From contig CAYVFO010000001.1 of NCBI GenBank assembly GCA_964450975.1, forward strand, positions 1 through 59,940: a stretch of 59,940 nucleotides of DNA, written 5' to 3'. Below the pieces are notes generated by a model. The model made no database searches and was not told where the DNA came from. It saw nothing but the letters and a program-made list of their open reading frames with translations. The position numbers were made by a program, and so were the translations under genes. This stretch comes from an uncultured Elusimicrobia bacterium. GTDB taxonomy: Bacteria > Elusimicrobiota > Elusimicrobia > UBA1565 > UBA9628. Of the stretch, positions 1,947-58,188 are shown in pieces. Numbering within the stretch: position 1 is the stretch's first letter; every line of letters starts with the position of its first letter.

Positions 1947-1955
1947 ATTATACCA
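1947..1955 (-). promoter_or_regulatory. extended -10 promoter TGgTATAAT, 8 nt upstream of the HAD ATG (leaderless candidate)
   Basis: The minus strand reads TTTTGGTATAATTTAAGGCGATG. The TATAAT is perfect and is preceded by TGg. Confidence 0.5.
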
Positions 1956-19450: not shown

Positions 19451-20062
19451 CTAGCCGAGCTTGAGGGCCGAGAGGATGAGCTGCACGCCGATCGCGGCGA
19501 GCAGCAGGCCCATGAGGCGGGTGATGATGTTGAGGATCGTGGGCGAGAGCTTCTTGGCCCCGTCGGCGGCGATCGTCAGCACGTAGTAGGAGATCAGCGC
19601 CACGACCGCGATGCACAGGTAGAAGATCAGGCTCTGCTCGATGCCCTGCGCGCGTCCGGCGAGCACGATCGAGGTCGTGATCGCGCCCGGGCCGGCGAGC
19701 AGGGGCACCGCGAGCGGCGTGATCGCGATGTCGTCCTTGTGCATGCCCTCCTCGACCTCCTCGGGCGTCTCGCGCATGGCCGACTTCTTGGCGCGGATCA
19801 TGTCGAGCGAGGAGAGGAGAAGGACGAGGCCGCCCGCGATCTGGAACGCGGGCAAGGTGATGCCGAACACCCTGAAGATCAGGGGGCCGAGGAGCGCGAA
19901 GATCGCCATGACGCCGGCGCAGGTGATGCACGCGGTGCGCGCCATGCGGCGGCGCTGCTCCTTCGTGTCGCGCGCGGTCATCGCGAGGAACGTCGGCACC
20001 GCGGCGAACGGGTCGACGATCGCGAAGAGCGAGCCGAAGGTCAGGAGCGCGTAATTGAGCAT
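19451..20062 (-). CDS. MarC-family (UPF0056) integral membrane protein
   Basis: 203 aa. The N-terminal FAIVDPFAAVPTFLAM motif is typical of MarC/NAAT. Confidence 0.85.
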   Translation of the reverse strand: MLNYALLTFGSLFAIVDPFAAVPTFLAMTARDTKEQRRRMARTACITCAGVMAIFALLGPLIFRVFGITLPAFQIAGGLVLLLSSLDMIRAKKSAMRETPEEVEEGMHKDDIAITPLAVPLLAGPGAITTSIVLAGRAQGIEQSLIFYLCIAVVALISYYVLTIAADGAKKLSPTILNIITRLMGLLLAAIGVQLILSALKLG

Positions 20063-20074
20063 CGCGGAGAGATT

Positions 20075-21196
20075 TTAGCTTTTCCGGGCCGACGCGACCA
20101 CGGCGAGGGCCTCGCGCGCGGCCTTTTCCCACGAGAACTCGGCGGCGCGCGCCGGGCCGCGCCGGCGCAGATCGGCGGCCGTCGCGGGGTCGACGACGCG
20201 CTCGAGCGCGAGCGCGAGCTCGTCGACGCGCGAGGCGTCGCAGAGGATCGCGGCGTCGCCGGCGACCTCCGTCAGCGAACCCGCGCGCGCGGCGACGACG
20301 GGAACGGCGCAGGCCATGGCCTCGAGGAGCGGAAAGCCGAAGCCTTCGAGCAAGGACGGATACACCAAAGCGTCGGCGCGGCGGTACAGCGCGAGCAGGT
20401 CGGCGCGCGAGACCGCTCCGGCCAGGAACACGCGGCCGGCGAGGGGGATTTTCGCGGCGAGCGCCCGCACCTCGGCTGCGGCGTCGGCGTCGCGTCCGGC
20501 CAGAACGAGCTTGTGCGGCAGGGACGGCTTCTTGTCGATGAGGAGCGCGAAGGCCTGAAGGAGGTTGGGAAGGTTCTTGCGCGAGTTGAGCGCCCCGACG
20601 TGCAGGAGGAACGGGCCCTTCACCGGCGCTTCCGGGTCGCCCGCGGCGAGCGGCCGGAACTCGGCGTCGGGTCCGCCGGCGTGGACGCGGACGACCTTCT
20701 CGGGCGCCAAGCCCCACTCCTTGAGCAGCTCCGCGCGCGAGTAGTCCGAGCTCGTGATCACGCGCGCCGCGCGCTTGGCCGAGGCGGCGGGCATCTTGCC
20801 GAAGTAGAGCTCGGGCCACCAGCCCTCGGGGAGCTTTCCGCCGACGTGGTGGACGGTCATGACGCCGGGCAGGCGCGACAGCGGAGGCAGGTCGTGGCCC
20901 AAGCTGTAGTAGGCGTCGACGCCGCGGCCGAGCAAGGTCCGCTCGCGCCACAGGAGGCCCGCGTAGTGCTCGGCGGGCAAGAGCAGGCGCTGCGGCGCGA
21001 GCATCAGGAAGCGCTCGGCGTTGCGCGCCTCGGGCAGCGGCAGGGAGTTCCACTTGTCGCGCGACCACGCGGCGGCGGTGAGCAGGAACTCGTGCTCCGG
21101 GGCAGTCTCGACCAGAGCGGCCGCCAGGCGCGCGGCGTAGAAGCCGCCGCCGCTCGCGGGGTCGAACGCAGCGGACACATCCAGCGCTATGCGCAT
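20075..21196 (-). CDS. glycosyltransferase family 4
   Basis: 373 aa. PSLLEGFGFPLLEAMACAVPVVA (E-x7-E) motif. Confidence 0.85.
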   Translation of the reverse strand: MRIALDVSAAFDPASGGGFYAARLAAALVETAPEHEFLLTAAAWSRDKWNSLPLPEARNAERFLMLAPQRLLLPAEHYAGLLWRERTLLGRGVDAYYSLGHDLPPLSRLPGVMTVHHVGGKLPEGWWPELYFGKMPAASAKRAARVITSSDYSRAELLKEWGLAPEKVVRVHAGGPDAEFRPLAAGDPEAPVKGPFLLHVGALNSRKNLPNLLQAFALLIDKKPSLPHKLVLAGRDADAAAEVRALAAKIPLAGRVFLAGAVSRADLLALYRRADALVYPSLLEGFGFPLLEAMACAVPVVAARAGSLTEVAGDAAILCDASRVDELALALERVVDPATAADLRRRGPARAAEFSWEKAAREALAVVASARKS

Positions 21197-21202
21197 CGCG
21201 GC

Positions 21203-21208
21203 ATTCTA
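21203..21208 (-). promoter_or_regulatory. -10 box TAGAAT 6 nt upstream of the GT4 ATG (leaderless candidate)
   Basis: The minus strand reads TTTTAGATAGAATGCCGCGATG. Confidence 0.4.
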
Positions 21209-21221
21209 TCTAAAATTTCAG

Positions 21222-21227
21222 TACAAT
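21222..21227 (+). promoter_or_regulatory. -10 box TACAAT 7 nt upstream of the ATG at 21235 (leaderless candidate)
   Basis: The plus strand reads CAGTACAATCCGGGAAATG. There is no Shine-Dalgarno sequence. Confidence 0.45.
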
Positions 21228-21234
21228 CCGGGAA

Positions 21235-22419
21235 ATGGCCCAACGCGAAATCGGCGTCGGGGGCTTCGCGGCGTCGCCGCGCGCCCGCCGCTACGTCAAC
21301 GAGGTCCTGAAGTCCGGCCGGCTCTCGTACGGGCCCTTCCATCGCCGCTTCGAGGCCGCGTTCGCGCGCGAGCACGACAGCAAGCACGCGCTGTTCATGA
21401 ACTCCGGCACGAGCGCCCTGCAGATCGCTCTTCAGGCGCTCAAAGAAAGGCATCGTTGGAGCGACGGCGACGAGGTCATCGTCCCCTCGGTCACCTTCAT
21501 CGCGACGTCGAACATCGTGCTCCACAACCGGATGAAGCCCGTGTTCGTCGACGTCGATCCGCTCACGTACACGCTCGACCCGCGCCGCCTCGAGGCCGCG
21601 ATCACGAAGAAGACGCGCGCCGTGATCCCCGTCCACCTGCTCGGCCTGCCCGCCGACATGAACGCGATCGGCAAGATCGCGCGCCGCCGCGGCCTCAAGG
21701 TCATCGAGGACTCCGCCGAGACGATGTTCGCGCGCTATGAGGGCCGCAAGGTCGGCTCGCTCGGCGACATCGGCTGCTTCTCGACGTACGTCGCGCACTA
21801 CATCGTCACCGGCGTCGGCGGCCTCGCGACGACGAGCGATCCCGCGCTCGCGATCCGCATGCGCAGCCTGATGAACCACGGCCGCGACTCGATCTACCTC
21901 AACATCGACGACGACAAGAACGCCAAGGGCAAGAAGCTCCACGAGATCGCGGCGAAGCGCTTCAAGTTCGTCTCCGTCGGCCACAGCTACCGCGCCACCG
22001 AGCTCGAGGCCGCGCTGGGACTGGCCCAGCTCGAGGAGAAGGACGGCATCGTCCGCGCGCGCGTCGCCCTGGCCGAGCGCCTGACCGCCGGCCTCCGCGA
22101 GTTCGGCGACCGCCTGCAGCTGCCGTGGTGCCCGCCCGGCCGCGAGCACACCTACATGCTCTACGGCGTCGTGCTCAAGGGCGAGGACAAGACGCCGCTC
22201 GTCAACTTCCTCGAGGACCGGGGCGTCGAGACGCGCGACCTGCTGCCGCTGCTCAATCAGCCCGTGTACAAGGAGCTCTTCGGCGATCTCGAGCGGAAGT
22301 TTCCGATCGCGCGCGAGCTCAACCGCTCGGCGTTCTACATCGGCTGCCACCAGTACATGACGAACGCCGACGCGGACTACGTCGTGGAGCAGTTCCGCGC
22401 CTACTTCAAGAAGCGCTGA
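21235..22419 (+). CDS. DegT/ColD-family PLP/PMP-dependent sugar-modifying enzyme; His at the Schiff-base Lys position (3-dehydratase-like)
   Basis: 394 aa. The active-site block CFSTYVAHYIVTGVGG has His188 (CAC at 21796-21798) where aminotransferases carry Lys. FKFVSVGHSYRATELEAALGLAQL resembles the ColD block FKFVLPGYNVRPLEMSGAIGIEQL (ColD sequence recalled from memory). Confidence 0.7.
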   Translation: MAQREIGVGGFAASPRARRYVNEVLKSGRLSYGPFHRRFEAAFAREHDSKHALFMNSGTSALQIALQALKERHRWSDGDEVIVPSVTFIATSNIVLHNRMKPVFVDVDPLTYTLDPRRLEAAITKKTRAVIPVHLLGLPADMNAIGKIARRRGLKVIEDSAETMFARYEGRKVGSLGDIGCFSTYVAHYIVTGVGGLATTSDPALAIRMRSLMNHGRDSIYLNIDDDKNAKGKKLHEIAAKRFKFVSVGHSYRATELEAALGLAQLEEKDGIVRARVALAERLTAGLREFGDRLQLPWCPPGREHTYMLYGVVLKGEDKTPLVNFLEDRGVETRDLLPLLNQPVYKELFGDLERKFPIARELNRSAFYIGCHQYMTNADADYVVEQFRAYFKKR

Positions 22420-23378: not shown

Positions 23379-24076
23379 GCGCCCCCGATCTCTCCATCGT
23401 GATCCCGGCCCTCAACGAGGAGGGCTCGCTGCGCCAGGTGCTGCCGCGCCTCAAGAAGGCGTTCGCGGCGCTCGGCGTGACCGGCGAAATTCTCGTCGTC
23501 AACGGCAAGTCCACCGACAAGACCGTCGAGGTGGCCGAGGCCGAGGGCGCGCGCGTGCTCGCGCAGCAAGGCCGCGGCTTCGGCGCCGCCCTGCGCGAGG
23601 GACTTCTCGCCGCCTCCGCGCCGTGGACGTGCGTCGTCGACGCCGACGGCTCGCACCCGCCCGAGGACTTGGCGCGCCTCTGGGCCGCGAAGGAGACGGC
23701 CGACCTCGTCATCGCCTCGCGCTACGTCTCCGGCGGCTCGGCGGTCATGGACCTCCAGCGTCAGATTCTTTCGAGATCTTTGAACATCGTCTCGAAGCTC
23801 GTGCTCTCTTTGCCCGTCTACGACAGCTCGGGCGGCTTCCGGCTCTACCGGTCTGACCTGGCCAAGAAAGCAGCTGCTTATTCCGACGCGCCGAACTTCA
23901 CGGTCCAGCAGGAGCTGCTCGTCGGCGTGCTGCGGCAGGGCGGCCGCGTCGTCGAGATCCCGTTCCGCTACGAGCCGCGCATCGACGGCGTCTCGAAGGC
24001 CTCGGCGACGGCGTTGGCGCCCGCGTACCTGCGGATGCTCGCCAAGCTCCGGGCCGACAGGCGGCGGCCCGTTTGA
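23375..24076 (+). CDS. polyprenol-phosphate sugar synthase (Dpm1/Ppm1-like GT2)
   Basis: 233 aa and soluble. IVIPALNEEGSL...VDADGSHPPED...SGGFRLYR are hallmark Dpm1-like blocks. ATGA overlap. Confidence 0.75.
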   Translation: MSAPDLSIVIPALNEEGSLRQVLPRLKKAFAALGVTGEILVVNGKSTDKTVEVAEAEGARVLAQQGRGFGAALREGLLAASAPWTCVVDADGSHPPEDLARLWAAKETADLVIASRYVSGGSAVMDLQRQILSRSLNIVSKLVLSLPVYDSSGGFRLYRSDLAKKAAAYSDAPNFTVQQELLVGVLRQGGRVVEIPFRYEPRIDGVSKASATALAPAYLRMLAKLRADRRRPV

Positions 24077-24083
24077 TACGATC

Positions 24084-25247
24084 ATGGCGATGAGCGAGAA
24101 GCTGTCCATCGTCGTGCCGGCCTACAACGAGGAGGACGCCGTCGACGGCATCCTCAAGGCCTGCCTCGACGCCCGCGAGCCCCTCAAGAAGGCCCTGGGG
24201 CTCTCCGACGTCGAGGTGGTCCTCGTCGACGACGGAAGCAAGGACGCGACGCGCGCCAAGGCCGCCAAGTGGCAGGGCGTCAAGCTCGTCGTCCACGAGA
24301 AGAACAAAGGCTACGGCGCGGCGCTCATGACGGGCTTCCGCGCGGCCTCGGGCGACCTGCTCTCCTTCCTCGACGCCGACGGCACGTGCGATCCCTTGGC
24401 GTTCGAAGGCCTGATCAAGGCGATGCGCGAGAAGAAAGGCGACATGGCCGTCGGCATGCGCCTGCACGCGGGCTCGGAGATGCCCGCGGTCCGGCGCCTC
24501 GGCAACCGCATCTACGCGATCCTGCTGCGCAGCCTGACCGGCGCCGACGTCAACGACACCGCCTCCGGCATGCGCGTCTTCAAGCGCTCGATGCTTCCGC
24601 GCTTGGCGCCCTTGCCGACGGGCCTGCACTTCACGCCCGCGATGACCGCGCGCGCGGCGTGCATGGGCGCTCTGATCGTCGAGTCCCCGATCCCCTACGC
24701 CGACCGCGTCGGCGAGTCGAAGCTCTCCGTGATCGGCGACGGCGTCCGATTCTTGCGCGTGATCCTCGGCACGGTGTTCGCCTACTTCCCCATGCGCGTG
24801 TTCGGCCCGCTCGCCGGCGCGTGCGCCGCGGGCGCGCTCGGCTGGGGCCTCATGCCGATCCGCTACTGGCTGACGCACGGCCACCTCGAGGAGTGGATGA
24901 TCTACCGCCTCCTCACGGTGCTGACGCTGACCGCGTGCGCGACCGTCTTCGCCGCGTTCGGCCTCGTCGCCCAGAAGGCGTCGAACGCCGCGCTGCGCCG
25001 CCCCGCCGCGCGCGTCGACGCTCCGAAGGTCCGCGAGGGCGCGGGCGCGGCCGGCGTCCTGCTCTGGCTCGTCGGCGCGGGCATCAACTGGCCGACGCTC
25101 GTCGAGTACGCGCGCACGGGTCACATCACGCGCCACTGGGTCTGGGTGCTCACGGGCGCGCTCGCGATCATCACGGGCGCCGTGCTCGTCTCGGTCGGCA
25201 TCGCGCTCGGCGCCCTCGCCCATCTGCCCAGCGGGGAGGACGAGTGA
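24084..25247 (+). CDS. GT2 glycosyltransferase with C-terminal TM helices (GtrB/CsbB-like polyprenyl-phosphate glycosyltransferase)
   Basis: 387 aa. IVVPAYNEEDAV...VDDGSKDAT...LDADGTCDP, followed by about 4 C-terminal TM segments. Confidence 0.75.
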   Translation: MAMSEKLSIVVPAYNEEDAVDGILKACLDAREPLKKALGLSDVEVVLVDDGSKDATRAKAAKWQGVKLVVHEKNKGYGAALMTGFRAASGDLLSFLDADGTCDPLAFEGLIKAMREKKGDMAVGMRLHAGSEMPAVRRLGNRIYAILLRSLTGADVNDTASGMRVFKRSMLPRLAPLPTGLHFTPAMTARAACMGALIVESPIPYADRVGESKLSVIGDGVRFLRVILGTVFAYFPMRVFGPLAGACAAGALGWGLMPIRYWLTHGHLEEWMIYRLLTVLTLTACATVFAAFGLVAQKASNAALRRPAARVDAPKVREGAGAAGVLLWLVGAGINWPTLVEYARTGHITRHWVWVLTGALAIITGAVLVSVGIALGALAHLPSGEDE

Positions 25248-28184: not shown

Positions 28185-28200
28185 GCTAACATGACACCCC

Positions 28201-30783
28201 ATGGCCGCCCCTAAGGGTCAGCGCGACTCCGCCGAAGCCTACGCCCACGCCTCGATCGTGGCCTGGCTGCCGATCCTCTACCTGCTGATCTCCTCTTTGT
28301 TCTTCCTGCGCACCTACGACTCCGCGCAGGTCAAGATCACGATGATGCAGATGGGCGGACTCGGCCTGCTGACGATGTGGCTCTGCCGCCTGGCGCTCGC
28401 CGGCCGCCACGCTTTCTCCAAGGACGACGTGATCTGCCTCTCGCCGTTCCTCGCCTACCTCGGCTGGGGCATCTTCTCGTACTGGAAGGCTCCGTACCAC
28501 ATGGCGAGCACGGACTTCTTCCTGCGCCACCTCTTCTACATGATCGTGGCCCTCATCGCGATCTACGAGCTCGACGAGCCCGCGGTCGACAAGCTCATCA
28601 AGTGGCTCATGTGGACCGCCTGGCTCGCGATCGGCTACGGCACGCTCCAGTTCATCGACAACGTCTCCTTCCCGCGCGGCCCGGGCAAGGGCATCGACCC
28701 GTTCGTCTGGCGCGGCGCGTTCGGCGACCGCGTGTTCTCGACCTACGGCAACCCGAACTTCTACGGCGACTTCCTCGTCATCATGTTCCCGATCCTGCTC
28801 ACGCAGTGGTTCAAGAAGCGGCAGACGAGCCTGCTCGTGCTCATGGGCATGCTGCTCCTCAACCTGATCATGACGGGCACGAAGGGCGCCTGGCTCGGCT
28901 TCGCGATGGTCTGCGCGATGTTCGGCGTCATCGCCTTCTGGTTCTTCCCGGAGCAGACGAAGTCCTACCGCAAGCAGGTGATCGGCCTCGTCCTCGCCGG
29001 CGTGCTCGGCTTCGTCGGCTACACGGCCAAGGACCTCTCGGCGCGCGCCGTCTCGATCAACTTCCGCCTCTTCACGTGGGAGGCCACGTGGGAGATGATC
29101 CGCACGCAGCCCTGGACCGGAACGGGCATCGGCTCCTTCCCTCCGATCTACCCCGCGTTCCGCCGCCCGCCGATCTTCCACATCGAGGGCAAGCACAACA
29201 CCGAGACCGACCACGCCGAGAACGAGTACCTGGAGCAGATGTTCGACAACGGCATCCTCGGCTTCGGCATTTTCCTCTGGCTCGTCATCAGCACCGTCGT
29301 CGTCGGCCTGCGCTCGCTGCGCGAGCTCACGAAGGCGGAGCTCCTGCGCGAGGGCCGTCCGCCGCCGCGCGCGTACGACCTCATCGGCCTGCTCGTGTCC
29401 TTCCTCGGCATGCTCGGGCACAACAACTTCGACGTGAGCCTGCGCTTCGTCTCGTCCGGCGTCTATCTCGGCCTGCTGTCCGGCCTGATCGTCAACGTCG
29501 CGCGCGGCAGCGCCCTCTACCAGCTGCACCCCCGCGCCGACGAGTCCGGCGAAGCGGAGGCGCCCGGCGCCTGGAAGACGATCTCCGAGATGCTCATCTG
29601 GCCCGCGCGCCTCGCGGCCGCCGGCGGCATCGTCTACTACGCGTTCGTGAAGGGCTGGGGCGGCTTCCGCGGCCTGCCGTTCGCCGGCATGTTCGGCGAG
29701 TTCGCGATGCTCCAGGGCCCGCTCTCGCGCATCCCCAACGGCGGCGAGCTGCTGCAGTGGTGGCTCGCGTGGAGCGTGTTCGCGGCCTGCATGCTCTGGC
29801 TCGGCTGGCGCCTCGCGCGCCTCTGCATGCTCGCCGAGAATCCCGTCGTGCCCGCGCTCGTGCTCGTCATGCTCGGCCCGCTCTACCAGTTCTGGGGCTA
29901 CTTCAAGGCCGACATCCACCACAACGTCGCGATCTACTTCTCGAAGGAGCGCAACTGGCAGCACGCCGTCTCCAACTACCTGATCGTCGACAGGCTCAAC
30001 CCCGATTTCGTGATGGCGAAGTACTTCCTCGGCAACGTCTTCAACGACCGCTTCGACATGACGAAGGCCTATCTGCCGAACTGGGGCGACCGCGACAACG
30101 TCGCGCGCGACGACTACGAGCGCGCGCTCTACTGGTACGACGAGGTCCGCAAGCTCGCGCCGAACTACGTCCAGATGCACCACCAGATCGGCAACCTGCA
30201 CCTCCGCCGCGCGCAGTACGCCGCGGACCGCGGCCTCAAGCAGGAAGCCGAGCGCTACCTCGACATGGCGATGACGCGCTTCAAGCTCTACCGCCAGATC
30301 GATCCCGTCTTCCCGCCGAACTACTACCGCATGGCGCAGGTCAACATGATCCGCCAGAAGTACGAGGAGGCCATCGAGCACTACCAGGCCTTCATCGACG
30401 CCGGCGGCTGCGAGGTGGACTCCTCCCTGCTCGAGAAGCCCTACCTGCGCTCCTCGATCCTCTCCTACCAGCAGTACGTCAACGAGGGCGGCCGTTGGAC
30501 GCACCGCCACGCGCGCGCCGATCAGCCGAGAGAGTCCGCCGAGGCCTACACGAGCCTTGCGAACGCGCAGTTCATGGCGGGACGCTACGAGGAAGCCGAG
30601 CAGAACTACCGAAAGGCGCTCTCCTACGAGCCGAACTTCGACATGGCCAAGCGCAACCTCGAGGTCACCTACCGCAAGGCGCAGGAGCTCGGGCGCCTGA
30701 AGAAGGACGCGGTCACCGACCCGAAGATCACGCCGGGACTCCCCGTCCCGACGGGCTGGCTCGTCGCTCCGAAAAAGCTCTAA
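28201..30783 (+). CDS. O-antigen-ligase-like (Wzy_C) membrane domain fused to a ~370-aa C-terminal TPR array
   Basis: 860 aa. Wzy_C loop motif TETDHAENEYLEQMFDNGILGFGIF. The C-terminal half contains repeated TPR-like units (NYLIVDRLNPDF..., ALYWYDEVRKLAPNY..., NYRKALSYEPNF...). Confidence 0.75.
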   Translation: MAAPKGQRDSAEAYAHASIVAWLPILYLLISSLFFLRTYDSAQVKITMMQMGGLGLLTMWLCRLALAGRHAFSKDDVICLSPFLAYLGWGIFSYWKAPYHMASTDFFLRHLFYMIVALIAIYELDEPAVDKLIKWLMWTAWLAIGYGTLQFIDNVSFPRGPGKGIDPFVWRGAFGDRVFSTYGNPNFYGDFLVIMFPILLTQWFKKRQTSLLVLMGMLLLNLIMTGTKGAWLGFAMVCAMFGVIAFWFFPEQTKSYRKQVIGLVLAGVLGFVGYTAKDLSARAVSINFRLFTWEATWEMIRTQPWTGTGIGSFPPIYPAFRRPPIFHIEGKHNTETDHAENEYLEQMFDNGILGFGIFLWLVISTVVVGLRSLRELTKAELLREGRPPPRAYDLIGLLVSFLGMLGHNNFDVSLRFVSSGVYLGLLSGLIVNVARGSALYQLHPRADESGEAEAPGAWKTISEMLIWPARLAAAGGIVYYAFVKGWGGFRGLPFAGMFGEFAMLQGPLSRIPNGGELLQWWLAWSVFAACMLWLGWRLARLCMLAENPVVPALVLVMLGPLYQFWGYFKADIHHNVAIYFSKERNWQHAVSNYLIVDRLNPDFVMAKYFLGNVFNDRFDMTKAYLPNWGDRDNVARDDYERALYWYDEVRKLAPNYVQMHHQIGNLHLRRAQYAADRGLKQEAERYLDMAMTRFKLYRQIDPVFPPNYYRMAQVNMIRQKYEEAIEHYQAFIDAGGCEVDSSLLEKPYLRSSILSYQQYVNEGGRWTHRHARADQPRESAEAYTSLANAQFMAGRYEEAEQNYRKALSYEPNFDMAKRNLEVTYRKAQELGRLKKDAVTDPKITPGLPVPTGWLVAPKKL

Positions 30784-31073: not shown

Positions 31074-32093
31074 TCAGGCGGCTTTCGCGCGGACGCGCGC
31101 GTTCTCGGCGGCGATCAGCGGATCGATCAAGGCGTAGATCGCCTTCGCCTCGGCGCTCGCGAGGAACGGCTGGTTCTTCGCGATGAGCCACCACTTGCGG
31201 GCCTCTTTCGCGGCGGCGAGCACCGGCGCGGGCACCATCGTCGCCTTGTAGGCGGGCAAAGACTTCGCCTCCTCGCCGAGCTCCTTGAGCATGAACTCGC
31301 GGGCCTTCGCGGGCTGGAGGTTCTTGACGAGGTAGGACGCGATCTCGGCGACGATCTTCTTCTTCTCGGCCGCGATGATGTCGGGCGGCGTGCCGCCGGC
31401 GACGAGCGCCGCGATGCCCTCGGGATACTCCTCGAGCCATTTGTGCGTGACCTGGCCCTCGTGGATGCGGCGGATCGCCAGGCGCTCGTAGATGACGCCC
31501 ACCTGGACGCCGTCGGCGAGCATGCGCGCGTAGAGCTCGTTGTCGAGGATGATCATGTCCGAGCGGTAGTGCCCGTACTTCTTGTAGAGCGCGCGCGGAA
31601 TCGCGAGGTTCGTCGTGAGATAGGGAAGAAACTCCTCGCCGACCGCGTAGTGGCCCGGGACCTTGCCTTCGGCGATGCGCATGCCGGGCGGGAACGCCGT
31701 GCCGATCAGCCGGTCGTAGCGGTGGAGCCAGCCGTCCGAGAAGACGAATCCGGCTTCGGGGCGCTTCTTGAAGAAGGAGGCGAACTTCTCGAGGCGATCG
31801 AGCGTCCAGAAGTCGTCGCTGTCGATGTTCGTGATCCACGTCCCCGTCGCCATCTCGAGGGCCATGTTGCGGCAGGCCATGTTGCCGATGTTCTTGGGGA
31901 CGCGCGTGTACTTGAAGCGGGGGTCCTTGGTCCACTCCTTGATCATCTCGGGAGTCTCGTCGACGGAGCCGTCGTCGACGATGAGGACCTCGTAGTCGGG
32001 GCACGTCTGGCGGACGACGGTCGAGAGCGCCCCGGGCAGCATGTGGGCGCGGTTGTACGTGGGGAGGACGATCGAGAACAGCGGCTCTGACAT
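31074..32093 (-). CDS. glycosyltransferase family 2
   Basis: 339 aa. SIVLPTYNRAHML...VDDGSVDET...IDSDDFW. Its ATG directly abuts the gpx TAG stop. Confidence 0.85.
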   Translation of the reverse strand: MSEPLFSIVLPTYNRAHMLPGALSTVVRQTCPDYEVLIVDDGSVDETPEMIKEWTKDPRFKYTRVPKNIGNMACRNMALEMATGTWITNIDSDDFWTLDRLEKFASFFKKRPEAGFVFSDGWLHRYDRLIGTAFPPGMRIAEGKVPGHYAVGEEFLPYLTTNLAIPRALYKKYGHYRSDMIILDNELYARMLADGVQVGVIYERLAIRRIHEGQVTHKWLEEYPEGIAALVAGGTPPDIIAAEKKKIVAEIASYLVKNLQPAKAREFMLKELGEEAKSLPAYKATMVPAPVLAAAKEARKWWLIAKNQPFLASAEAKAIYALIDPLIAAENARVRAKAA

Positions 32094-32672
32094 CTAGAGG
32101 AGGGCTTCGATCTTGCCGACGATGGACTTGCCCGTGGGCGAGTCCTCGGGCCCGAAGCGCGCGACGACCTTGCCGTCCTTGTCGACGAGGAACTTGGAGA
32201 AGTTCCACGGGATGTCGCCGTTGAAGCCCGCTTCGGTCGTCAGGTACTTGTAGAGCGGATGGATGCCGGGACCCTTCACCACGATCTTCGAGAACAGGTC
32301 GAAGGAGAGCGCGTACTTCGTCAGGCAGAAGCTCTTCACCTCGGCGTTGGAGCCGGGCTCCTGCGCGCCGAACTCGTTGGCCGGGAAGGCCGCGATGCGC
32401 AGGCCCTTCGGCTGATACTTCTGGTAAAGCTCCTGGAGGTCGGTGTACTGCGGCGTGAAGCCGCACAACGAGGCGGTGTTGACGATCAGCAGCGGGTGGC
32501 CCTTGTACTTCGAGAGCTTGACCGGCTTGCCGTCGATGTCGGCCATCTCGAACTCATGGACGCGGCCCTTCGTCTTCTCGGCTTGCATGGGATCCACCTC
32601 GCGTTTTCCCGACACGGCGGCTTTGGCGGCGAAGATCGCGGACGCGAAGCCGAGCCGGAGCCTGTCGAGCAT
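32094..32672 (-). CDS. gpx: glutathione peroxidase (Cys-type)
   Basis: 192 aa. NTASLCGFT, FPANEFGAQEPG and WNFSKFLV signature blocks, with an N-terminal extension or signal-like segment. Confidence 0.9.
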   Translation of the reverse strand: MLDRLRLGFASAIFAAKAAVSGKREVDPMQAEKTKGRVHEFEMADIDGKPVKLSKYKGHPLLIVNTASLCGFTPQYTDLQELYQKYQPKGLRIAAFPANEFGAQEPGSNAEVKSFCLTKYALSFDLFSKIVVKGPGIHPLYKYLTTEAGFNGDIPWNFSKFLVDKDGKVVARFGPEDSPTGKSIVGKIEALL

Positions 32673-32678
32673 GCTCCG

Positions 32679-32684
32679 ATTCTA
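32679..32684 (-). promoter_or_regulatory. -10 box TAGAAT 6 nt upstream of the gpx ATG
   Basis: The minus strand reads GGCTAAAGAGTAGAATCGGAGCATG, directly after the upstream TAA stop. Confidence 0.4.
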
Positions 32685-32688
32685 CTCT

Positions 32689-33345
32689 TTAGCCGTGCCG
32701 CTCCTCCAGCCACGGGTCGGCGCGGTTGTGATAACCGCGCGTCTCCCAGAAGCCGGGCTTGTCGATCGCGGAGAACTCGAGCCCGCGCAGGAACTTGGCG
32801 GACTTCCAGGCGTAGAGCGTCGGGATCACCATGCGCATCGGACCGCCGTGCTCGATGGGCAGCGGCTTGCCGTCGAGCTCGTAGGCGAGCAGGCAGTCCG
32901 GCGAGGACGCCTCGAGCAGCGAGGTGTTCGTCGTGTACTCGTCGGCCGAGTGCTGGATGAGGAACAAGGTCGATTCCTTGGGCTTGACGATCTTCAGCAG
33001 ATCGGCGATCTGCACGCCGGCCCAGCGGACGTCCTGCTTCGACCAGGTCGTCACGCAGTGGAAGTCGGAGACGAGCTCCTTTTTGGGGAGCTTCAGAAAA
33101 TCCGCCCAGGTGAGATCGAGCGGGTTCTCGACCTCGCCCCAGACCTTGAACCGCCACGTCTTCTCGTCGAAGGGCGGATGGACGCCGAGGTCGAGGACGG
33201 GGAAGTTGTCGCCGCTCCAGTGCTGGCCGGGCGGCAGCCGCTTCTTCTCCTGATTGGCGAGGCGCTCAACCTTTTCCTTCTTGAAGCGCTCGAGCATCTT
33301 CGCCTTCGCGGCGATCATCTTCTCGTTGTATTCAGGGTCAGGCAC
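32689..33345 (-). CDS. sulfite-oxidase-like molybdopterin-dependent oxidoreductase (small, YedY/MsrP-related fold)
   Basis: 218 aa. HCVTTWS...LAYELDGKPLPIEHGGPMRMVIPTLYAWKSAKFLRGLEF blocks. GTG start at 33345. Confidence 0.8.
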   Translation of the reverse strand: MPDPEYNEKMIAAKAKMLERFKKEKVERLANQEKKRLPPGQHWSGDNFPVLDLGVHPPFDEKTWRFKVWGEVENPLDLTWADFLKLPKKELVSDFHCVTTWSKQDVRWAGVQIADLLKIVKPKESTLFLIQHSADEYTTNTSLLEASSPDCLLAYELDGKPLPIEHGGPMRMVIPTLYAWKSAKFLRGLEFSAIDKPGFWETRGYHNRADPWLEERHG

Positions 33346-33362
33346 AGGAATTCAGGAATTCG

Positions 33363-33899
33363 TTAAATTCGAAAGAGGATCAGGCGCGCGGCCGCGAGCA
33401 CATCCTTCGCGACGGCGTAGGGCTTCGCCTTGTAGGCGCGGTCCTTGCCGCCCTTGCCCGTGCGCACGAGCACGGAGCGGCACCCGGCGCGGCGGCCGCA
33501 CTCGACGTCGGAGGTCTTGTCGCCGATCATCCACGAGCCGGCCATGTCGAGCTTGAAGCGGCGCTTGGCGGCGAGCAGCATGCCGGGCTTGGGCTTGCGC
33601 ATCGGACTCTTGCTGTCGGGGCCGTGCGGCGAGACGTAGAGCGCGTCCCACTTGGCGCCTTTCGCGGCGAGCAGCTTCTTCAAGCGCGCGTGGACGCGGC
33701 CGACCGTCGCCATCGTGAAGTAGCCGCGCGCGACGCCGCTTTGGTTCGTGACGACGACGAGCTTGTAGCCCGCTTTCTTGAGGAGCTTCATCGCCCGGGG
33801 CGCACCGCCGATGAGGCGCAGCCCGGCGGGATCGGCGAGATATTCCGCGTCCCGGATGAGGACGCCGTCGCGGTCGAGGAAGACGGCGCGGGGCTTCAC
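33363..33899 (-). CDS. gmhB: D-glycero-D-manno-heptose 1,7-bisphosphate phosphatase-like HAD-IIIA phosphatase
   Basis: 178 aa. FLDRDGVL, VVTNQSGVARG, RKPKPGML and IGDKTSD motifs. GTG start at 33899. Confidence 0.75.
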   Translation of the reverse strand: MKPRAVFLDRDGVLIRDAEYLADPAGLRLIGGAPRAMKLLKKAGYKLVVVTNQSGVARGYFTMATVGRVHARLKKLLAAKGAKWDALYVSPHGPDSKSPMRKPKPGMLLAAKRRFKLDMAGSWMIGDKTSDVECGRRAGCRSVLVRTGKGGKDRAYKAKPYAVAKDVLAAARLILFRI

Positions 33900-33905
33900 G
33901 ACGCT

Positions 33906-33911
33906 ATTCTA
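33906..33911 (-). promoter_or_regulatory. -10 box TAGAAT 6 nt upstream of the gmhB GTG
   Basis: The minus strand reads GGCTAAAGCTAGAATAGCGTCGTG, directly after the upstream TAA stop. Confidence 0.4.
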
Positions 33912-33914
33912 GCT

Positions 33915-34403
33915 TTAGCCGGGTTTGAAGAACCAGGCGAGCCCGTCGGCGACGCGATAGTAACAGCCTTTGAGGCGCGTCGCGATCGACGGCTCGGCGG
34001 GACGCACGCCGTTGAAGCGCAGGATCTCGCGCTCGACGCGCGGGGTGATGGGCGCCTGCAGATGCCCCGAGCCTGCGAACATGGGCTTGCCGTCGGGCTT
34101 GAGGAAGAAGGTGTAGCCGCCGTAGTCCTTCTTGTCGGCATTGGCGGGCAGGAGCTGCTTGTGCTCGCGCGCGCCGGGCGTGCCGAGCATCTGAGAGGAG
34201 ATCACCTCCGAGCCGGAGAGCTTCCAAAGCCCGATCACGGGCGTGTCGCCGGAGGCGCCGATCGCCTTGAGCAGCTCGAGGGCGCCGGGAGCGCGCGTGT
34301 CGACGACGGAGATGCCGACGCGGTGGAAGCGCGCGCCGTCCATCCGGTGGACGAGCGCCTCTGCGGGAGCGGCGAGGACGACGGCGAGCAGCCACAGCTT
34401 CAC
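33915..34403 (-). CDS. secreted protein of unknown function
   Basis: The track ORF runs to 34517, but a GTG at 34403 gives a clean signal peptide (VKLWLLAVVLAAPAEA) and is preceded by a -10-like box. About 162 aa. Confidence 0.5.
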   Translation of the reverse strand: MKLWLLAVVLAAPAEALVHRMDGARFHRVGISVVDTRAPGALELLKAIGASGDTPVIGLWKLSGSEVISSQMLGTPGAREHKQLLPANADKKDYGGYTFFLKPDGKPMFAGSGHLQAPITPRVEREILRFNGVRPAEPSIATRLKGCYYRVADGLAWFFKPG

Positions 34404-34410
34404 TGCCGCC

Positions 34411-34416
34411 AGTATA
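34411..34416 (-). promoter_or_regulatory. -10 box TATACT 7 nt upstream of the GTG at 34403
   Basis: The minus strand reads CCTTTATACTGGCGGCAGTG. Confidence 0.35.
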
Positions 34417-34527
34417 AAGGAAAGCCGGGCGCGTCGAAAGGGTCGAATGGCCCAGCCGGCGGCGCCGAAAGGCCATCCTGAAAAATCGAGGGTTTCCCGG
34501 CGTAATTCGCGGAACAATGGAACTCGA

Positions 34528-34545
34528 ACTCTTCGCGCGAAGAGT
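34528..34545 (-). terminator. hairpin (perfect 18-nt palindrome ACTCTTCGCGCGAAGAGT) after the 12-gene array
   Basis: It lies 55 nt downstream of the deacetylase stop. On the minus strand it is followed by a moderately U-rich stretch (TCGAGTTCCATTGTTCC). Confidence 0.4.
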
Positions 34546-34599
34546 CCCGGCGTCTCAGGAGCCGCCGTAACTCGCGCCGGGGCCAGTTGCGGCGGCCGA

Positions 34600-35559
34600 T
34601 CAGCCGCCGATGCCGAGCGCGCGGCGCGCGCCCTGGAGGACGTTCCGCCCGATCGAGAACGTCTGCTCGAACTTCTTCCAGGAGTCGCGGTCGTCGGTGC
34701 CGAAGCGCAGCAGCGCGTAGGGGTCGTCGCCGCGCGAGACGAAGCCCGCGATCGTCGTCAGGCCGCACTTGTAGCCCGCGCCCTTGAGCTCTTCCGTCGT
34801 CTCCGCGGAGAAGTCGTCGTAGTCGCCGTTCGGGTAGCAGAACAGGTCGCACGGCTTGCCGACGTTCTTCTCGACGAGCTTGCGCGAGAGGCGCAGCTCG
34901 GAGCGCAGGTCGTCCGGCGGCAGCAAGGTGGCGATCGTGTGGGTGTGGCCGTGCGAGCCGATCTCGACGAGGCCCGAGGCGCTCATCTCGCGGCAGTGCT
35001 CCCAGGTGACGGGGCGGTAGGCGTCGGGCGCGCCGGCCTCGAGGACGAGGCGGCTGCCGAGCTCGGCCTCGACGCCGGCGATCAGCGCGTTGCGCTCGCC
35101 GGGCAGCATGTCCTTGGCCTGACGCTGGAAGCCCTTGAGGCGCTCGCGGCGCGCGGCGGCGTCGCCGGGGGCGTTCGCGAAGGCGTACTCGAGGCGGTCG
35201 GGCCACAGCGGCACGCGCGCGTCGACGAACTCGGTCGCGGTGAAGAGGATCGCGGGCGCGTCGAACTCCTTGAGGACCGGAAAGCCGAGCGTGCGCACCG
35301 TCTCGTAGCCGTCGTCGATGGAGAGCGCGGTCGCGTAGTCCGGGAGCGGCGGCCCGCCGCTCAACGAGTCGACCACGGCGCGCAGGGGGACGATCGTCCT
35401 GTTCTTCCGCAGCCACTCGAGCTGCTTGCGGAAGGTCGCCTGCTGCAGGCGGTTGCCCTGGTAGTTGACCACGCCGTCGGACGGACGGTCGGTGAAGCCG
35501 TGGTACATGAGGACGACGGCCTGCCGGCGGCGCAGGCGGGAGAGCATCGCGCTCAGCAT
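34600..35559 (-). CDS. polysaccharide deacetylase (NodB-homology, CE4-like)
   Basis: 319 aa (3' part of track ORF 34600-37809). LMYHGF...LSIDDGY...GSHGHTHT...FCYPNG motifs. Confidence 0.8.
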   Translation of the reverse strand: MLSAMLSRLRRRQAVVLMYHGFTDRPSDGVVNYQGNRLQQATFRKQLEWLRKNRTIVPLRAVVDSLSGGPPLPDYATALSIDDGYETVRTLGFPVLKEFDAPAILFTATEFVDARVPLWPDRLEYAFANAPGDAAARRERLKGFQRQAKDMLPGERNALIAGVEAELGSRLVLEAGAPDAYRPVTWEHCREMSASGLVEIGSHGHTHTIATLLPPDDLRSELRLSRKLVEKNVGKPCDLFCYPNGDYDDFSAETTEELKGAGYKCGLTTIAGFVSRGDDPYALLRFGTDDRDSWKKFEQTFSIGRNVLQGARRALGIGG

Positions 35560-45125: not shown

Positions 45126-45512
45126 TCACTCGGACTTGCCGAGGATGGCGGCGATGCGGTCGTGCAGCTTGGCCATCTCGAAGGGCTTCTGGAGGACCTC
45201 CGCCGCGCCGCTCATGAGCGCGATGCCCTTCTCTTTGACCGTGTCGCGGCTGGTCATGATCATGATCTTCGGGGCCTTCGCGCCGAGCTTGTTGGTGAGC
45301 TCGTAGGCGACGTGATAGCCGTCGATGTACGGCATCATGACGTCGAGGAGAACGAGATCGAGCGTCTCGTTGAGCGCCGTCTGCAGCGCGTCCTTTCCGT
45401 TGGCGGCCGCGAGGACCTCATAGCCCTGATAGGCGAGGTCCATCTTCAGCAGGTCGAGGAGATCGGGATCGTCGTCCGCGACCAGAATCCGCTTCTTTTT
45501 GGCGTCGGCCAT
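45126..45512 (-). CDS. stand-alone response-regulator receiver (CheY-like)
   Basis: 128 aa. DD pair (VADDDPD), phospho-acceptor LVLLDVMMP, conserved T (MTS) and K (QKPF). Confidence 0.9.
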   Translation of the reverse strand: MADAKKKRILVADDDPDLLDLLKMDLAYQGYEVLAAANGKDALQTALNETLDLVLLDVMMPYIDGYHVAYELTNKLGAKAPKIMIMTSRDTVKEKGIALMSGAAEVLQKPFEMAKLHDRIAAILGKSE

Positions 45513-45519
45513 TCTTCTC

Positions 45520-45547
45520 CTTATATGAGCGTTGGAATTCTACCCAA
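45520..45547 (-). promoter_or_regulatory. promoter/RBS region of the 12-gene array (two alternative -10 boxes)
   Basis: The minus strand reads TTGGGTAGAATTCCAACGCTCATATAAGGAGAAGAATG. Either TAGAAT (45537-45542) gives a ~20-nt leader carrying an AAGGAG SD, or TTGGGT-N16-TATAAG-N7-ATG gives a leaderless transcript. Confidence 0.4.
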
Positions 45548-45557
45548 AAATGGCACG

Positions 45558-49387: not shown

Positions 49388-49396
49388 TGCTACAAT
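49388..49396 (+). promoter_or_regulatory. extended -10 promoter TGcTACAAT 8 nt upstream of the Nudix ATG (leaderless candidate)
   Basis: The plus strand reads TTTGCTACAATCGGCCCCGATG. Confidence 0.5.
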
Positions 49397-49404
49397 CGGC
49401 CCCG

Positions 49405-49950
49405 ATGGCCAGAAACGACAAGGGCTTGATCGAGACCTTCGTCAGCAAGAAGACCGTCTGGAAGGGCCGCGCGGTCAACTTCGACGTCGACACCGTGCGC
49501 CTGCCCAACGGCAAGCACGCGACCCGCGAGTTCATGAACCATCCCGGCGCCGCCGGCGTGGTTCCGTTCCTCGACAGGGACACGATCGTCCTCGTCCGCC
49601 AGTACCGCTACCCCGTCCGCGAGGTCACGCTCGAGCTGCCCGCCGGCAAGCTCGACCCGGGCGAGAGCCCGCTCGTCTGCCTCAAGCGCGAGCTCAAGGA
49701 AGAGACCGGCTTCACCGCGGCGAAGTTCAAGCCGCTCATCAAATACTGGCCGACGCCCGCCTTCGCCGACGAGGTCCTGCACCTCTACGTCGCGACCGGG
49801 CTCAAGAAAGGCGAGGTGAACGCCGACGACGACGAGTTCATCGAGAGCGTCGTCATGCCGTTCAGAAAGGCGCTCGACCTCGTGAAGACCGGCAAGATCC
49901 GCGACTCGAAGACCGTCGTGGGCCTGCTCGCCTGCGCCGTGAAGCGATGA
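49405..49950 (+). CDS. nudF: Nudix hydrolase, ADP-ribose pyrophosphatase-like
   Basis: 181 aa. Nudix box GKLDPGESPLVCLKRELKEETGF. The N-terminal beta domain is typical of ADPRases. Confidence 0.8.
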   Translation: MARNDKGLIETFVSKKTVWKGRAVNFDVDTVRLPNGKHATREFMNHPGAAGVVPFLDRDTIVLVRQYRYPVREVTLELPAGKLDPGESPLVCLKRELKEETGFTAAKFKPLIKYWPTPAFADEVLHLYVATGLKKGEVNADDDEFIESVVMPFRKALDLVKTGKIRDSKTVVGLLACAVKR

Positions 49951-56256: not shown

Positions 56257-57797
56257 ACGCCCCTCTTGCGCGGCAAGGTCATGGTCACCGTCGAGCCCGA
56301 GCCGAGCTTCGACTGCAACTTCGCGGCGCCGCCGTGCAGCTCGGCCACCTTACGCACGAACGCGAGGCCGAGGCCCATGCCGTCCTGCTGGCCCGTGAAG
56401 TCCTTCTCGACCTGCGTAAACCTGGCGAACACGCGGTCGAGCTCCTCGGGCGGGATGCCGGGCCCGGTGTCGGCGATCGAGATCGCGGCCCAGTCGCCCT
56501 CGGCGGTCGCGCGGATCGCCACGGGCGGGCCCTGCTTCGGGTTGAACTTGACCGCGTTGTCGACGAGGTTCTTGAGCGCCTCGACGATCAGGCGCTTGTC
56601 GCACATGACGACGAGCCCCGACGGCGCGGCGTCCACCTTCGCGTTGACGGCGTCGAGCTTCTCCTTCATCGAGCCGAGCGCCTCGGAGACGAGCTCGTCC
56701 AGGGGCGCGGGCTCCGGACGGATCTGCGTGTCCGGGCTCTCGATCGTCGTGTAGGACAGGAGCTTGTCGACGAGCTCGGAGACCTTGAGGCCCTGCTCGC
56801 GGATCGTGCGGATCGCCTTGGCCATCATCGGGTCGGAGTCGGAGTCGAGGTCGCCGACGAGGATCTCGGCGAAGCCGGTCACCGCCGCGAGCGGCGTGCG
56901 CAGCTTGTGCGAGATCAGCGAGAGGAACGTGCGCTTGAGCTTCTCCTGGCGCCAGTTCTCCGTGCGGTCGCGGAACACGAACAGCCGGCCCTCGAGCCCC
57001 TGCAGCGGCGCGCGCGTGACGCGGCCCTCGAGCACGAGCAACGTCGGCTCCTTGCGGACGGCCGCGAAGTCGGCGGCGGCCTTCTCGCACGCGAGCAGGT
57101 CGGGCAAGGACGGGGTGACGGCCATGCCCCTGAGACCCGCCCCGACCTCGCCGAGTTCTGCCAGCGCGGGCCCGAGCAGCTTGCCCGACGCTTCGTTGGC
57201 GAGCAGGATCTTCCCGGAGGGGTCGGTCAGCACCGCGCCGTCGGTCATCTGCGCGAACACAGTCGCGAGCTTGAAGCGCTCTTCCTTCAGCGAGGCGAAG
57301 AGCTGGGCGTTGTCGATGGCGACCGCGGCCTGCGAGGCGAACGCCTCGAAGACGCGCTGGTCGTGCTCGGAGAAGCCGCCGCCGCGCTTGTTGATCGCCT
57401 CGAGCACGCCGATGAGGCGCCCCTTGAGCATCATCGGGACCGCGAGGATCGAGCGGGTGACGAAGCCCGACGCCGCGTCCATCGCCGGCGACCAGCGCGG
57501 GTCCTGGCGGACCTCGTTGATGACCTCCGCCTTGCGGCTCTGCGCGACCGCGCCCGCGATGCCCACGCCGAGCTTGAGGCGCACCTTCGCCGCGTCCTCG
57601 CCCAGGCCGAGCGCCGTGTGGAAGTAGAGCTCCTGCGTCTTGTCGTCGAGAAGGAGCAAGGACGCGCTCTCCGCCTCCACGACCTTCGTCGAGAGCTGGA
57701 GCACCGAGGTCAGCAGCTCCCCGATCTCGAGCTTCGACGACAGGAGGCGTCCGACCTCGAGCAGCAGCTCGAGCTCTTGTTCTTTGCTCGCGGCCAT
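56253..57797 (-). CDS. cytoplasmic GAF-PAS sensor histidine kinase
   Basis: 514 aa with no TM helix. GAF domain (ESASLLLLDD...AVPMMLKGRLIGVLEA), H-box SHKLRTPL, N-box NLVDNAVKF, G-boxes DTGPGI and GMGLGL. Confidence 0.9.
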   Translation of the reverse strand: MAASKEQELELLLEVGRLLSSKLEIGELLTSVLQLSTKVVEAESASLLLLDDKTQELYFHTALGLGEDAAKVRLKLGVGIAGAVAQSRKAEVINEVRQDPRWSPAMDAASGFVTRSILAVPMMLKGRLIGVLEAINKRGGGFSEHDQRVFEAFASQAAVAIDNAQLFASLKEERFKLATVFAQMTDGAVLTDPSGKILLANEASGKLLGPALAELGEVGAGLRGMAVTPSLPDLLACEKAAADFAAVRKEPTLLVLEGRVTRAPLQGLEGRLFVFRDRTENWRQEKLKRTFLSLISHKLRTPLAAVTGFAEILVGDLDSDSDPMMAKAIRTIREQGLKVSELVDKLLSYTTIESPDTQIRPEPAPLDELVSEALGSMKEKLDAVNAKVDAAPSGLVVMCDKRLIVEALKNLVDNAVKFNPKQGPPVAIRATAEGDWAAISIADTGPGIPPEELDRVFARFTQVEKDFTGQQDGMGLGLAFVRKVAELHGGAAKLQSKLGSGSTVTMTLPRKRGV

Positions 57798-57914
57798 TCT
57801 AGAAACCTACCAAATACGGGCTCCGCGGGGGCTCGGCGCGCCCTCGGGCGACGGCATCCCGAGTATAAGAGGAAGGCCCGGGCTCCGCAAGTCGCGGATG
57901 TTACAGCTTTTTCC

Positions 57915-58159: not shown

Positions 58160-58188
58160 TGGACGATCCGGCCCAAAGGGGCTATGCT
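58160..58188 (+). promoter_or_regulatory. promoter TGGACG-N17-TATGCT, 7 nt upstream of the ATG at 58196 (leaderless candidate)
   Basis: The plus strand reads TGGACGATCCGGCCCAAAGGGGCTATGCTGTGCCCGATG. Confidence 0.4.

Follow-up and report, generated by a model that had tools for sequence, protein, structure and literature searches.

Genes transcribed without a 5' leader from a Pribnow box that lies 6-8 nt before the start codon have been described as a property of the 'group C' genomes of GeneMarkS-2 (Lomsadze et al. 2018, PMC6028130) and as 'TA-led' genes (Zheng et al. 2011, PMC3160421). In these genomes the leaderless genes are the first genes of their transcription units and Shine-Dalgarno (SD) led genes are found elsewhere. 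The architecture is known mainly from Actinobacteria (90% of genomes) and Deinococcus-Thermus (97%) and is rare in Proteobacteria and Firmicutes (PMC6028130; PMC3160421). The leaderless mode has been confirmed by differential RNA sequencing (dRNA-seq) in Mycobacterium tuberculosis, Deinococcus deserti and others (PMC6028130). In the current analysis we have considered the TANNNT hexamers that lie close upstream of start codons, foremost those of gpx and gmhB, in a stretch of 59,940 nt from an uncultured Elusimicrobia bacterium (contig CAYVFO010000001.1 of assembly GCA_964450975.1, contig C1 in our numbering), which is referred to as the window. These hexamers are very probably the -10 elements of leaderless promoters, a genome-wide habit that would involve about a quarter of the genes.

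The arrangement is similar to that of the group C and TA-led genomes in having TANNNT 6-8 nt ahead of first-in-operon starts beside SD-led internal genes. In those genomes 25-50% of the transcription units are of this type, and the definition is a computational one, as it is here. Elusimicrobia are not mentioned in the main texts of the two surveys (PMC6028130 and PMC3160421). The signature of the architecture is strong in the sequences of GC-rich Elusimicrobia and no report for the phylum has been found, a full-text literature search for 'leaderless' with Elusimicrobia or Elusimicrobiota having returned no relevant paper, with the supplementary genome lists of the surveys outside the search. 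Since the architecture is the known one, a new lineage for a known mode is described here and not a new mechanism.

SigA promoters of the -10-only type in mycobacteria are known to consist of TANNNT, in some cases extended by TGn, with little or no -35 element, and the Streptomyces consensus is TAGAPuT (Pu, purine), which the TAGAAT favoured in the present genome resembles. The likeness to mycobacteria extends to the GC-rich genome, to this form of TANNNT promoter, to the use of both ATG and GTG as leaderless starts and to a share of about a quarter of the genes, including genes in apparent operons. For M. tuberculosis and M. smegmatis, ribosome profiling and the mapping of transcription starts have provided proof of leaderless mRNAs (Cortes 2013 and Shell 2015, as cited in PMC6028130), whereas the present case is read from sequence and belongs to an unrelated phylum, the GC-rich members of which are known here as metagenome-assembled genomes (MAGs) only. 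It also differs in its favoured hexamer, TAGAAT, and in a subset of boxes with an A-tract extension of the form AAAG(C/G). D. deserti, in which 167 of 262 mapped genes are leaderless by dRNA-seq (de Groot et al. 2014, as cited in PMC6028130), is comparable in its GC-rich genome, its high share of genes with a -10 box abutting the start, and its canonical anti-SD with SD-led genes alongside. The estimate for the present genome is lower (26% of genes, or 35-43% of those with their own upstream space) and comes from sequence inspection.

The boxes of gpx and gmhB

The first-pass annotation of the window had placed TAGAAT six nt ahead of the ATG of gpx and of the GTG of gmhB on the minus strand, and both boxes are found where it had put them. 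The gpx gene (32094-32672, minus strand) encodes a protein of 192 residues with a Pfam GSHPx match (E = 4.9e-38), and its candidate leaderless start is the ATG at 32672-32670. The box occupies 32679-32684, with a 6-nt spacer to the ATG and AAAGAG directly before it, and the TAA stop of the upstream molybdopterin-oxidoreductase gene is situated at 32689-32691, 16 nt from the gpx ATG. Read on the minus strand the junction is CGG CAC GGC TAA agag TAGAAT cggagc ATG. The N-terminal extension of 28 residues is taken as coding and the ATG at 32672 as supported, because the orthologues align from residue 1-4. In several relatives the TAG stop of the molybdopterin-oxidoreductase gene itself forms the first three bases of the gpx TAGAAT box.

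The gmhB-like gene (33363-33899, minus strand) encodes a HAD phosphatase of 178 residues with Pfam Hydrolase_like and HAD matches. Its box (33906-33911) is separated by a 6-nt spacer from the GTG at 33899-33897 and is preceded by AAAGC, which places a G at -14. The TAA stop of the upstream secreted-protein gene is at 33915-33917, 15 nt from the GTG, and the junction reads AAA CCC GGC TAA agc TAGAAT agcgtc GTG. The GTG at 33899 must be the start, because the catalytic motif FLDRDG follows from residue 7, an in-frame TAG is present at -12 and a protein begun at the next candidate codon would lack the motif.

The gmhB and gpx loci have been compared with those of same-genus genomes sharing 53-83% protein identity, the counts including the locus of the window. 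TANNNT precedes an in-frame start by 5-7 nt, where the N-termini align, in 22 of the 24 gmhB loci, as TAGAAT in 18, and likewise in 20 of the 23 gpx loci, as TAGAAT in 17. A box could be recognised by eye in one further gpx locus. Another, L122, has ATA instead of ATG or GTG after TAGAAT-N6, which points either to a leaderless start at a non-canonical codon or to a mistake in the assembly. Where the N-terminus is three codons longer the box has moved along with the start codon, and it is retained irrespective of whether the upstream neighbour is the same, different or divergent. The conserved columns at gmhB comprise AAAAGC-TAGAAT (73-100%), with 45-68% in the spacer and 32-45% further upstream; gpx has a like pattern over AAAGG-TAGAAT. 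No conservation has been observed at -35 in these loci of either gene, and the flanks diverge. As TAGAAT is kept at orthologue spacings of 5, 6 and 7 nt, it is not tied to the reading frame.

The longer string GGCTAAAG, which had been proposed as part of a recurrent motif, does not hold as such. It has 8 copies in the genome, of which only the two in the window precede TAGAAT, and its GGC-TAA part is a glycine codon and the stop codon that end the upstream gene. The AAAG core has a wider occurrence: AAAG(N1-2)TAnnnT-N5-9-start followed by an open reading frame (ORF) of at least 80 codons has been identified at 21 sites of the genome, 13 of them as AAAGC-TA, and AAGC at -16 to -13 is about five-fold above the expectation from single-position frequencies (10 observed). 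The most fitting interpretation of the AAAG part is a variant of the extended -10 region with an A-tract and G-14. No upstream k-mer or box shared by the 21 promoters of this class was found, and upstream boxes of the CTAGGTC type are rejected as well, as this 7-mer has only 32 copies in the genome, below the number expected from composition.

Two other features have been observed. AAAGC-class promoters in contigs C27, C39 and C69 share ATACCAAAAGC-TAnAAT (ATACCAAAAAAGC in C69) and may represent a small promoter sub-family or the site of a regulator. On the minus strand of contig C4, near 22423 of the reverse-complemented contig, the segment tcgtATAGGTCTaaagacTACTATagacATAGGTCTta has an 8-nt direct repeat, ATAGGTCT, flanking a -10-like box, and the pair looks like a pair of operators.

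Position and specificity of the hexamer in the genome

The MAG comprises 3.03 Mb in 349 contigs with a GC content of 69% and is about 81% complete. Its DnaE matched only MAGs of Elusimicrobia or Elusimicrobiota, at 79-92% identity, with about 47% for gut genomes of the Elusimicrobium type, which places the organism among the uncultured, GC-rich Elusimicrobiota. The genes were taken from a home-made set of ORFs of at least 100 codons, selected by GC-rich coding signatures and a codon log-odds score and covering about 71% of the genome, so that the percentages given here are approximate. A self-trained gene finder, when unseeded, settled on antisense shadow ORFs and lost the signal; seeded with the rule GC3 > GC1 > GC2 (GC content at the three codon positions) it matched the first pipeline. 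Gene names in the window have been checked by Pfam matches (GSHPx, HAD/Hydrolase_like, MarC, Wzy_C with TPR, NUDIX), and tRNA and Rfam scans of the window gave no matches.

The genome-wide enrichment of TAnnnT that the first-pass annotation had put forward as a check has been measured as the distance at which TANNNT begins ahead of an ORF's first start candidate. At 186-189 of about 1,455 such starts the hexamer begins at -12, compared with about 5-20 (about 10) at any other offset, giving one sharp peak. At deep internal in-frame start codons the box is present in only 0.12%. Among the 64 patterns of the form XYNNNZ, TANNNT is the sole one enriched at -12 (19.6-fold; the next best reaches 2.9-fold), and the patterns that come next, at 2-3-fold, are either SD-like or near-cognate forms of the -10 (CANNNT, TANNNG, TANNNA). 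If spacers of 5-7 nt are admitted and the start may be any one of a gene's first candidates, the box is present in 375 of 1,461 genes (26%), with a spacer of 6 nt in 241 of them. The commonest hexamers are TAGAAT, TATACT, TATCCT and TATAAT.

Half of the -12 matches have TAA or TAG as their first triplet, and in the low-GC relatives described below a bump of 1.7-1.8-fold at -12 vanishes when stop-type hexamers are left out. Both facts would suit an artefact, in which stop-codon context supplies the TA, or the rule of taking the first start after an in-frame stop, or mere small-sample chance, produces the peak. This explanation has a negligible probability. The non-stop form TA[CT]NNT still gives 96 matches at -12 against about 5, so the peak is not made by in-frame TAA or TAG codons, and the in-frame offsets -15, -9 and -6 have no comparable peak. 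The unconditioned base frequencies of genes with their own upstream space also reveal the element, with T-12 at 28%, A-11 at 37%, T-7 at 30% and C-1 at 48% over backgrounds of about 17%, 17%, 16% and 33%, respectively. The non-stop, 64-pattern and orthologue controls together essentially refute an artefact.

The context of the box has been analysed in 371 matches aligned on the hexamer. G is present at -14 in 61-68% and TG, as in an extended -10, in 27%. TTG is found at exactly the 17-bp spacer in 44 of the 371, compared with about 3-4 at control positions, and 25% of the box genes have at least four of six matches to TTGACA, against 5-6% in shifted controls. C is present at -1 in 66-80%, next to the A or G with which the start codon begins, and the two bases make up the pyrimidine/purine context that is usual at transcription starts. 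The start codons of box genes are ATG in 68% and GTG in 31%. SD-like 4-mers precede 6% of the box genes versus 37% of the other genes, and in-frame GC3 is 0.61 ahead of the box-gene starts and 0.89 past them. The jump in GC3 at these positions and the scarcity of SD there indicate that they are true gene starts.

The SD is in use elsewhere in the genome, where GGAG, GAGG and AGGA peak at -14 to -8. A search of the MAG found no 16S gene; in two same-genus genomes, from which it was taken instead, the 16S 3' end is canonical (...GGATCACCTCCTTTC). The canonical 3' end in the genus and the peak of SD 4-mers before other genes imply that the SD and leaderless modes coexist.

Gene junctions and further boxes in the window

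The box is spread over the junction types in a manner that fits promoters. It is present at 1% (2/187) of co-directional junctions shorter than 5 nt, at 30% (39/132) of those of 5-29 nt and at 35% of those of 30-199 nt, and in 43% of divergent gaps shorter than 200 nt. With 39 of 132 short junctions carrying one, an own -10 box just past the stop of the neighbouring gene is a recurrent arrangement, and the suggestion that genes inside apparent operons have their own promoters is borne out by this count at the level of sequence. The boxes of the short junctions would be -10-only promoters, some of which may be minor relative to read-through from upstream.

The neighbour's stop adjoins the box in eight cases, four with TGA and four with TAG. 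The four TGA cases read TGATAnnnT, a perfect extended -10, and include one in the window (TGATACGAT, 24074-24082, plus strand), where the TGA serves as the TGn extension 7 nt before the ATG at 24090; the other three are in contigs C20, C35 and C81. In six short-junction cases the box itself begins with the stop triplet (TAA or TAG) of the neighbour.

It may be considered that the A/T-rich hexamers act on the RNA and not as promoters, serving as SD-independent enhancers of translation, as standby sites free of structure or, on polycistronic mRNAs, as signals for re-initiation. Many of the sites lie 10-30 nt past a co-directional gene, where coupling would be useful, and the accessory promoter signals are weakest in the short-junction class. 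Such a role is nevertheless very unlikely, as it is T-A-N-N-N-T that is enriched and not AT-rich sequence in general (at most 2.6-fold for AANNNA, TANNNA and TTNNNT) and the TG or G-14, the TTG at the 17-bp spacer and the C-1 would be without a role. The box is, moreover, commonest in the divergent gaps, which have no upstream mRNA, and near-absent from the junctions shorter than 5 nt.

Several points weigh against the reading of these hexamers as leaderless promoters or limit its extent. The percentages are approximate, as they derive from the home-made set of ORFs. The short-junction class has the weaker accessory signals already referred to, with G-14 in 49% and a -35 with at least four of six matches in 10%; some of its genes may be expressed mainly through upstream read-through, and the six matches in which the neighbour's TAA or TAG provides the TA of the box could be due to chance. 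A consensus -35/-10 scan of 31900-34700 detected 0 full promoters, and the -35 hexamers of gpx and gmhB are poor, a result that is also consistent with promoters lacking a -35. An internal ATG of gpx at 32588 (Met29; 32586-32600, minus strand), with GAGGTG-N6 upstream, is a possible additional, SD-led start. Met29 and the preceding residues E-V-N/D-P are conserved in all orthologues but one, and initiation at this codon could yield a form of 164 residues without the hydrophobic N-terminal 28 residues.

Another explanation accepts the promoters as real but not the strict absence of leaders. The first base of the transcript would lie a few nt off the start codon, or the true start codon would lie downstream, as at ATG 32588 behind its SD-like GAGGTG, and the boxes would be ordinary internal promoters with short or SD-bearing leaders. 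Leaders of 1-3 nt would result from the 8-9-nt spacers of marC, Wzy_C, HAD and Nudix, and a leadered TAGAAT promoter does exist before 45512 (both described below). We regard this explanation as unlikely, since the genome has a single sharp offset with the 6-nt spacer prevailing, the C-1 and purine +1 coincide with the start codon and GC3 rises exactly there. Residues 2-28 of Gpx are conserved in the orthologues, and no alternative gmhB start keeps the catalytic motif. Position, specificity, accessory signals, SD depletion, the GC3 jump and the conservation in orthologues all argue for the view, taken already in the first-pass annotation, that -10 boxes giving leaderless mRNAs are a major mode of expression in this organism.

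The other boxes that had been listed in the window have all been located, with spacers of 6-9 nt. The gene of the secreted protein (162 residues), with a signal-peptide-like product start VKLWLLAVVLAAPAEA, has TATACT at 34411-34416 on the minus strand, 7 nt from the GTG at 34403. The marC box, TAAAAT (20072-20077, minus strand), is preceded by AAAAGC and lies 9 nt from the ATG at 20062, a start that is supported by the Pfam MarC match, which begins at residue 4 and spans profile positions 3-200 of 203. The Wzy_C-TPR gene has TAACAT (28187-28192, plus strand) with AAGC before it, 8 nt from the ATG at 28201. Extended -10 elements have been identified ahead of the HAD operon (TGgTATAAT, 1947-1955, minus strand, 8 nt to the ATG at 1938) and of the gene with a Pfam NUDIX domain (TGcTACAAT, 49388-49396, plus strand, 8 nt to the ATG at 49405), and an unnamed gene has TATGCT (58183-58188, plus strand) 7 nt from its ATG at 58196. 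A further extended -10, TGgTAGGTT (57804-57812, minus strand), is 6 nt from the ATG at 57797.

A gene of the GT4 family (TAGAAT, 21203-21208, minus strand, 6 nt to the ATG at 21196) and a DegT-family aminotransferase gene (TACAAT, 21222-21227, plus strand, 7 nt to the ATG at 21235) are separated by a divergent gap of 38 bp (21197-21234). The two leaderless-type -10 boxes lie face to face in this gap, and the -35 position of each falls on or beside the -10 region of its partner.

The SD-led genes that had been named as contrasts are present as well, with AAGGAG before 43255 and AAGGGGG before 59309. At 45513-45550 on the minus strand TAGAAT is situated about 26 nt ahead of the ATG at 45512 with an AAGGAG SD between them, which suggests that the same -10 consensus also drives a leadered, SD-led gene in this genome.

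Occurrence in the phylum and proposed mode of expression

The identical -12 test has been applied to samples of 55-400 kb from other genomes of the phylum, the samples being small. Another member of the genus (GC 0.70) gives 17-fold enrichment, two other families of the order (GC 0.67-0.69) give 11- and 15-fold, and a genome from one more family of the class (GC 0.60) gives 11-fold. Two further families with a GC content of 0.53 show 3-4-fold. Four low-GC genomes (G105, G071, G104 and G060; GC 0.34-0.45), one of the same class and three of other classes, have no -12 peak once stop-type hexamers are excluded; before the exclusion they have the slight bump mentioned above, and their SD peaks are stronger. 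The leaderless signature thus tracks GC content within the sampled Elusimicrobiota.

Based on these observations the TAnnnT hexamers are proposed to be -10 elements of housekeeping promoters of the sigma-70 type, so placed that RNA polymerase would start on the first base of the start codon, an A or a G. From this placement we infer that the mRNAs of box genes have neither a 5' leader nor a Shine-Dalgarno sequence, and that, by analogy with other bacteria, ribosomes carrying initiator tRNA would bind the 5'-terminal AUG or GUG directly. Translation from a 5'-terminal start finds indirect support in the N-terminal residues of Gpx and GmhB, which are conserved from position 1-4, and in the rise of GC3 at the start. 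The habit is likely to cover about a quarter of the genes, or 35-43% of the genes with their own upstream space, beside SD-led and overlap-coupled genes.

Many of the promoters, those of gpx and gmhB included, appear to have no recognisable -35, and the -10 with a short upstream extension would suffice. The extension is predicted to be either TGn or an A-tract ending in G-14, for example AAAG(C/G)-TAGAAT. Promoters that need only a -10 and such an extension would find room in gaps of 10-30 nt behind a co-directional neighbour, and in a few cases the neighbour's stop codon would form part of the box.

A wider reading, which we put forward tentatively and with somewhat less than even confidence, is that leaderless initiation from promoters without a -35 is a clade-wide and so far undescribed main mode in the GC-rich members of the class Elusimicrobia, of which only MAGs are known here. 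The mode would be shared by three or more families of the order and by the member of a fourth family with a GC content of 0.60, and would have been lost, or never gained, in the sampled low-GC lineages of the phylum. The clade would then have a grammar of its own, with a TAGAAT consensus, AAAG(C/G) or TGn in place of the -35 and stop codons reused in the box, and this grammar would let promoters sit in gene junctions of 10-15 nt.

Elusimicrobia MAGs are annotated with tools that expect an SD ahead of the start. If a quarter of the genes are leaderless, the calls of start codons would be biased unless a model of the group C type is used, and operon predictions from short intergenic distances would be biased too. 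The finding would make this phylum, which is neither Actinobacteria nor Deinococcus-Thermus, one more lineage in which leaderless genes are frequent, and the tracking of GC content within the phylum bears on whether leaderless initiation is ancestral or has been gained repeatedly.

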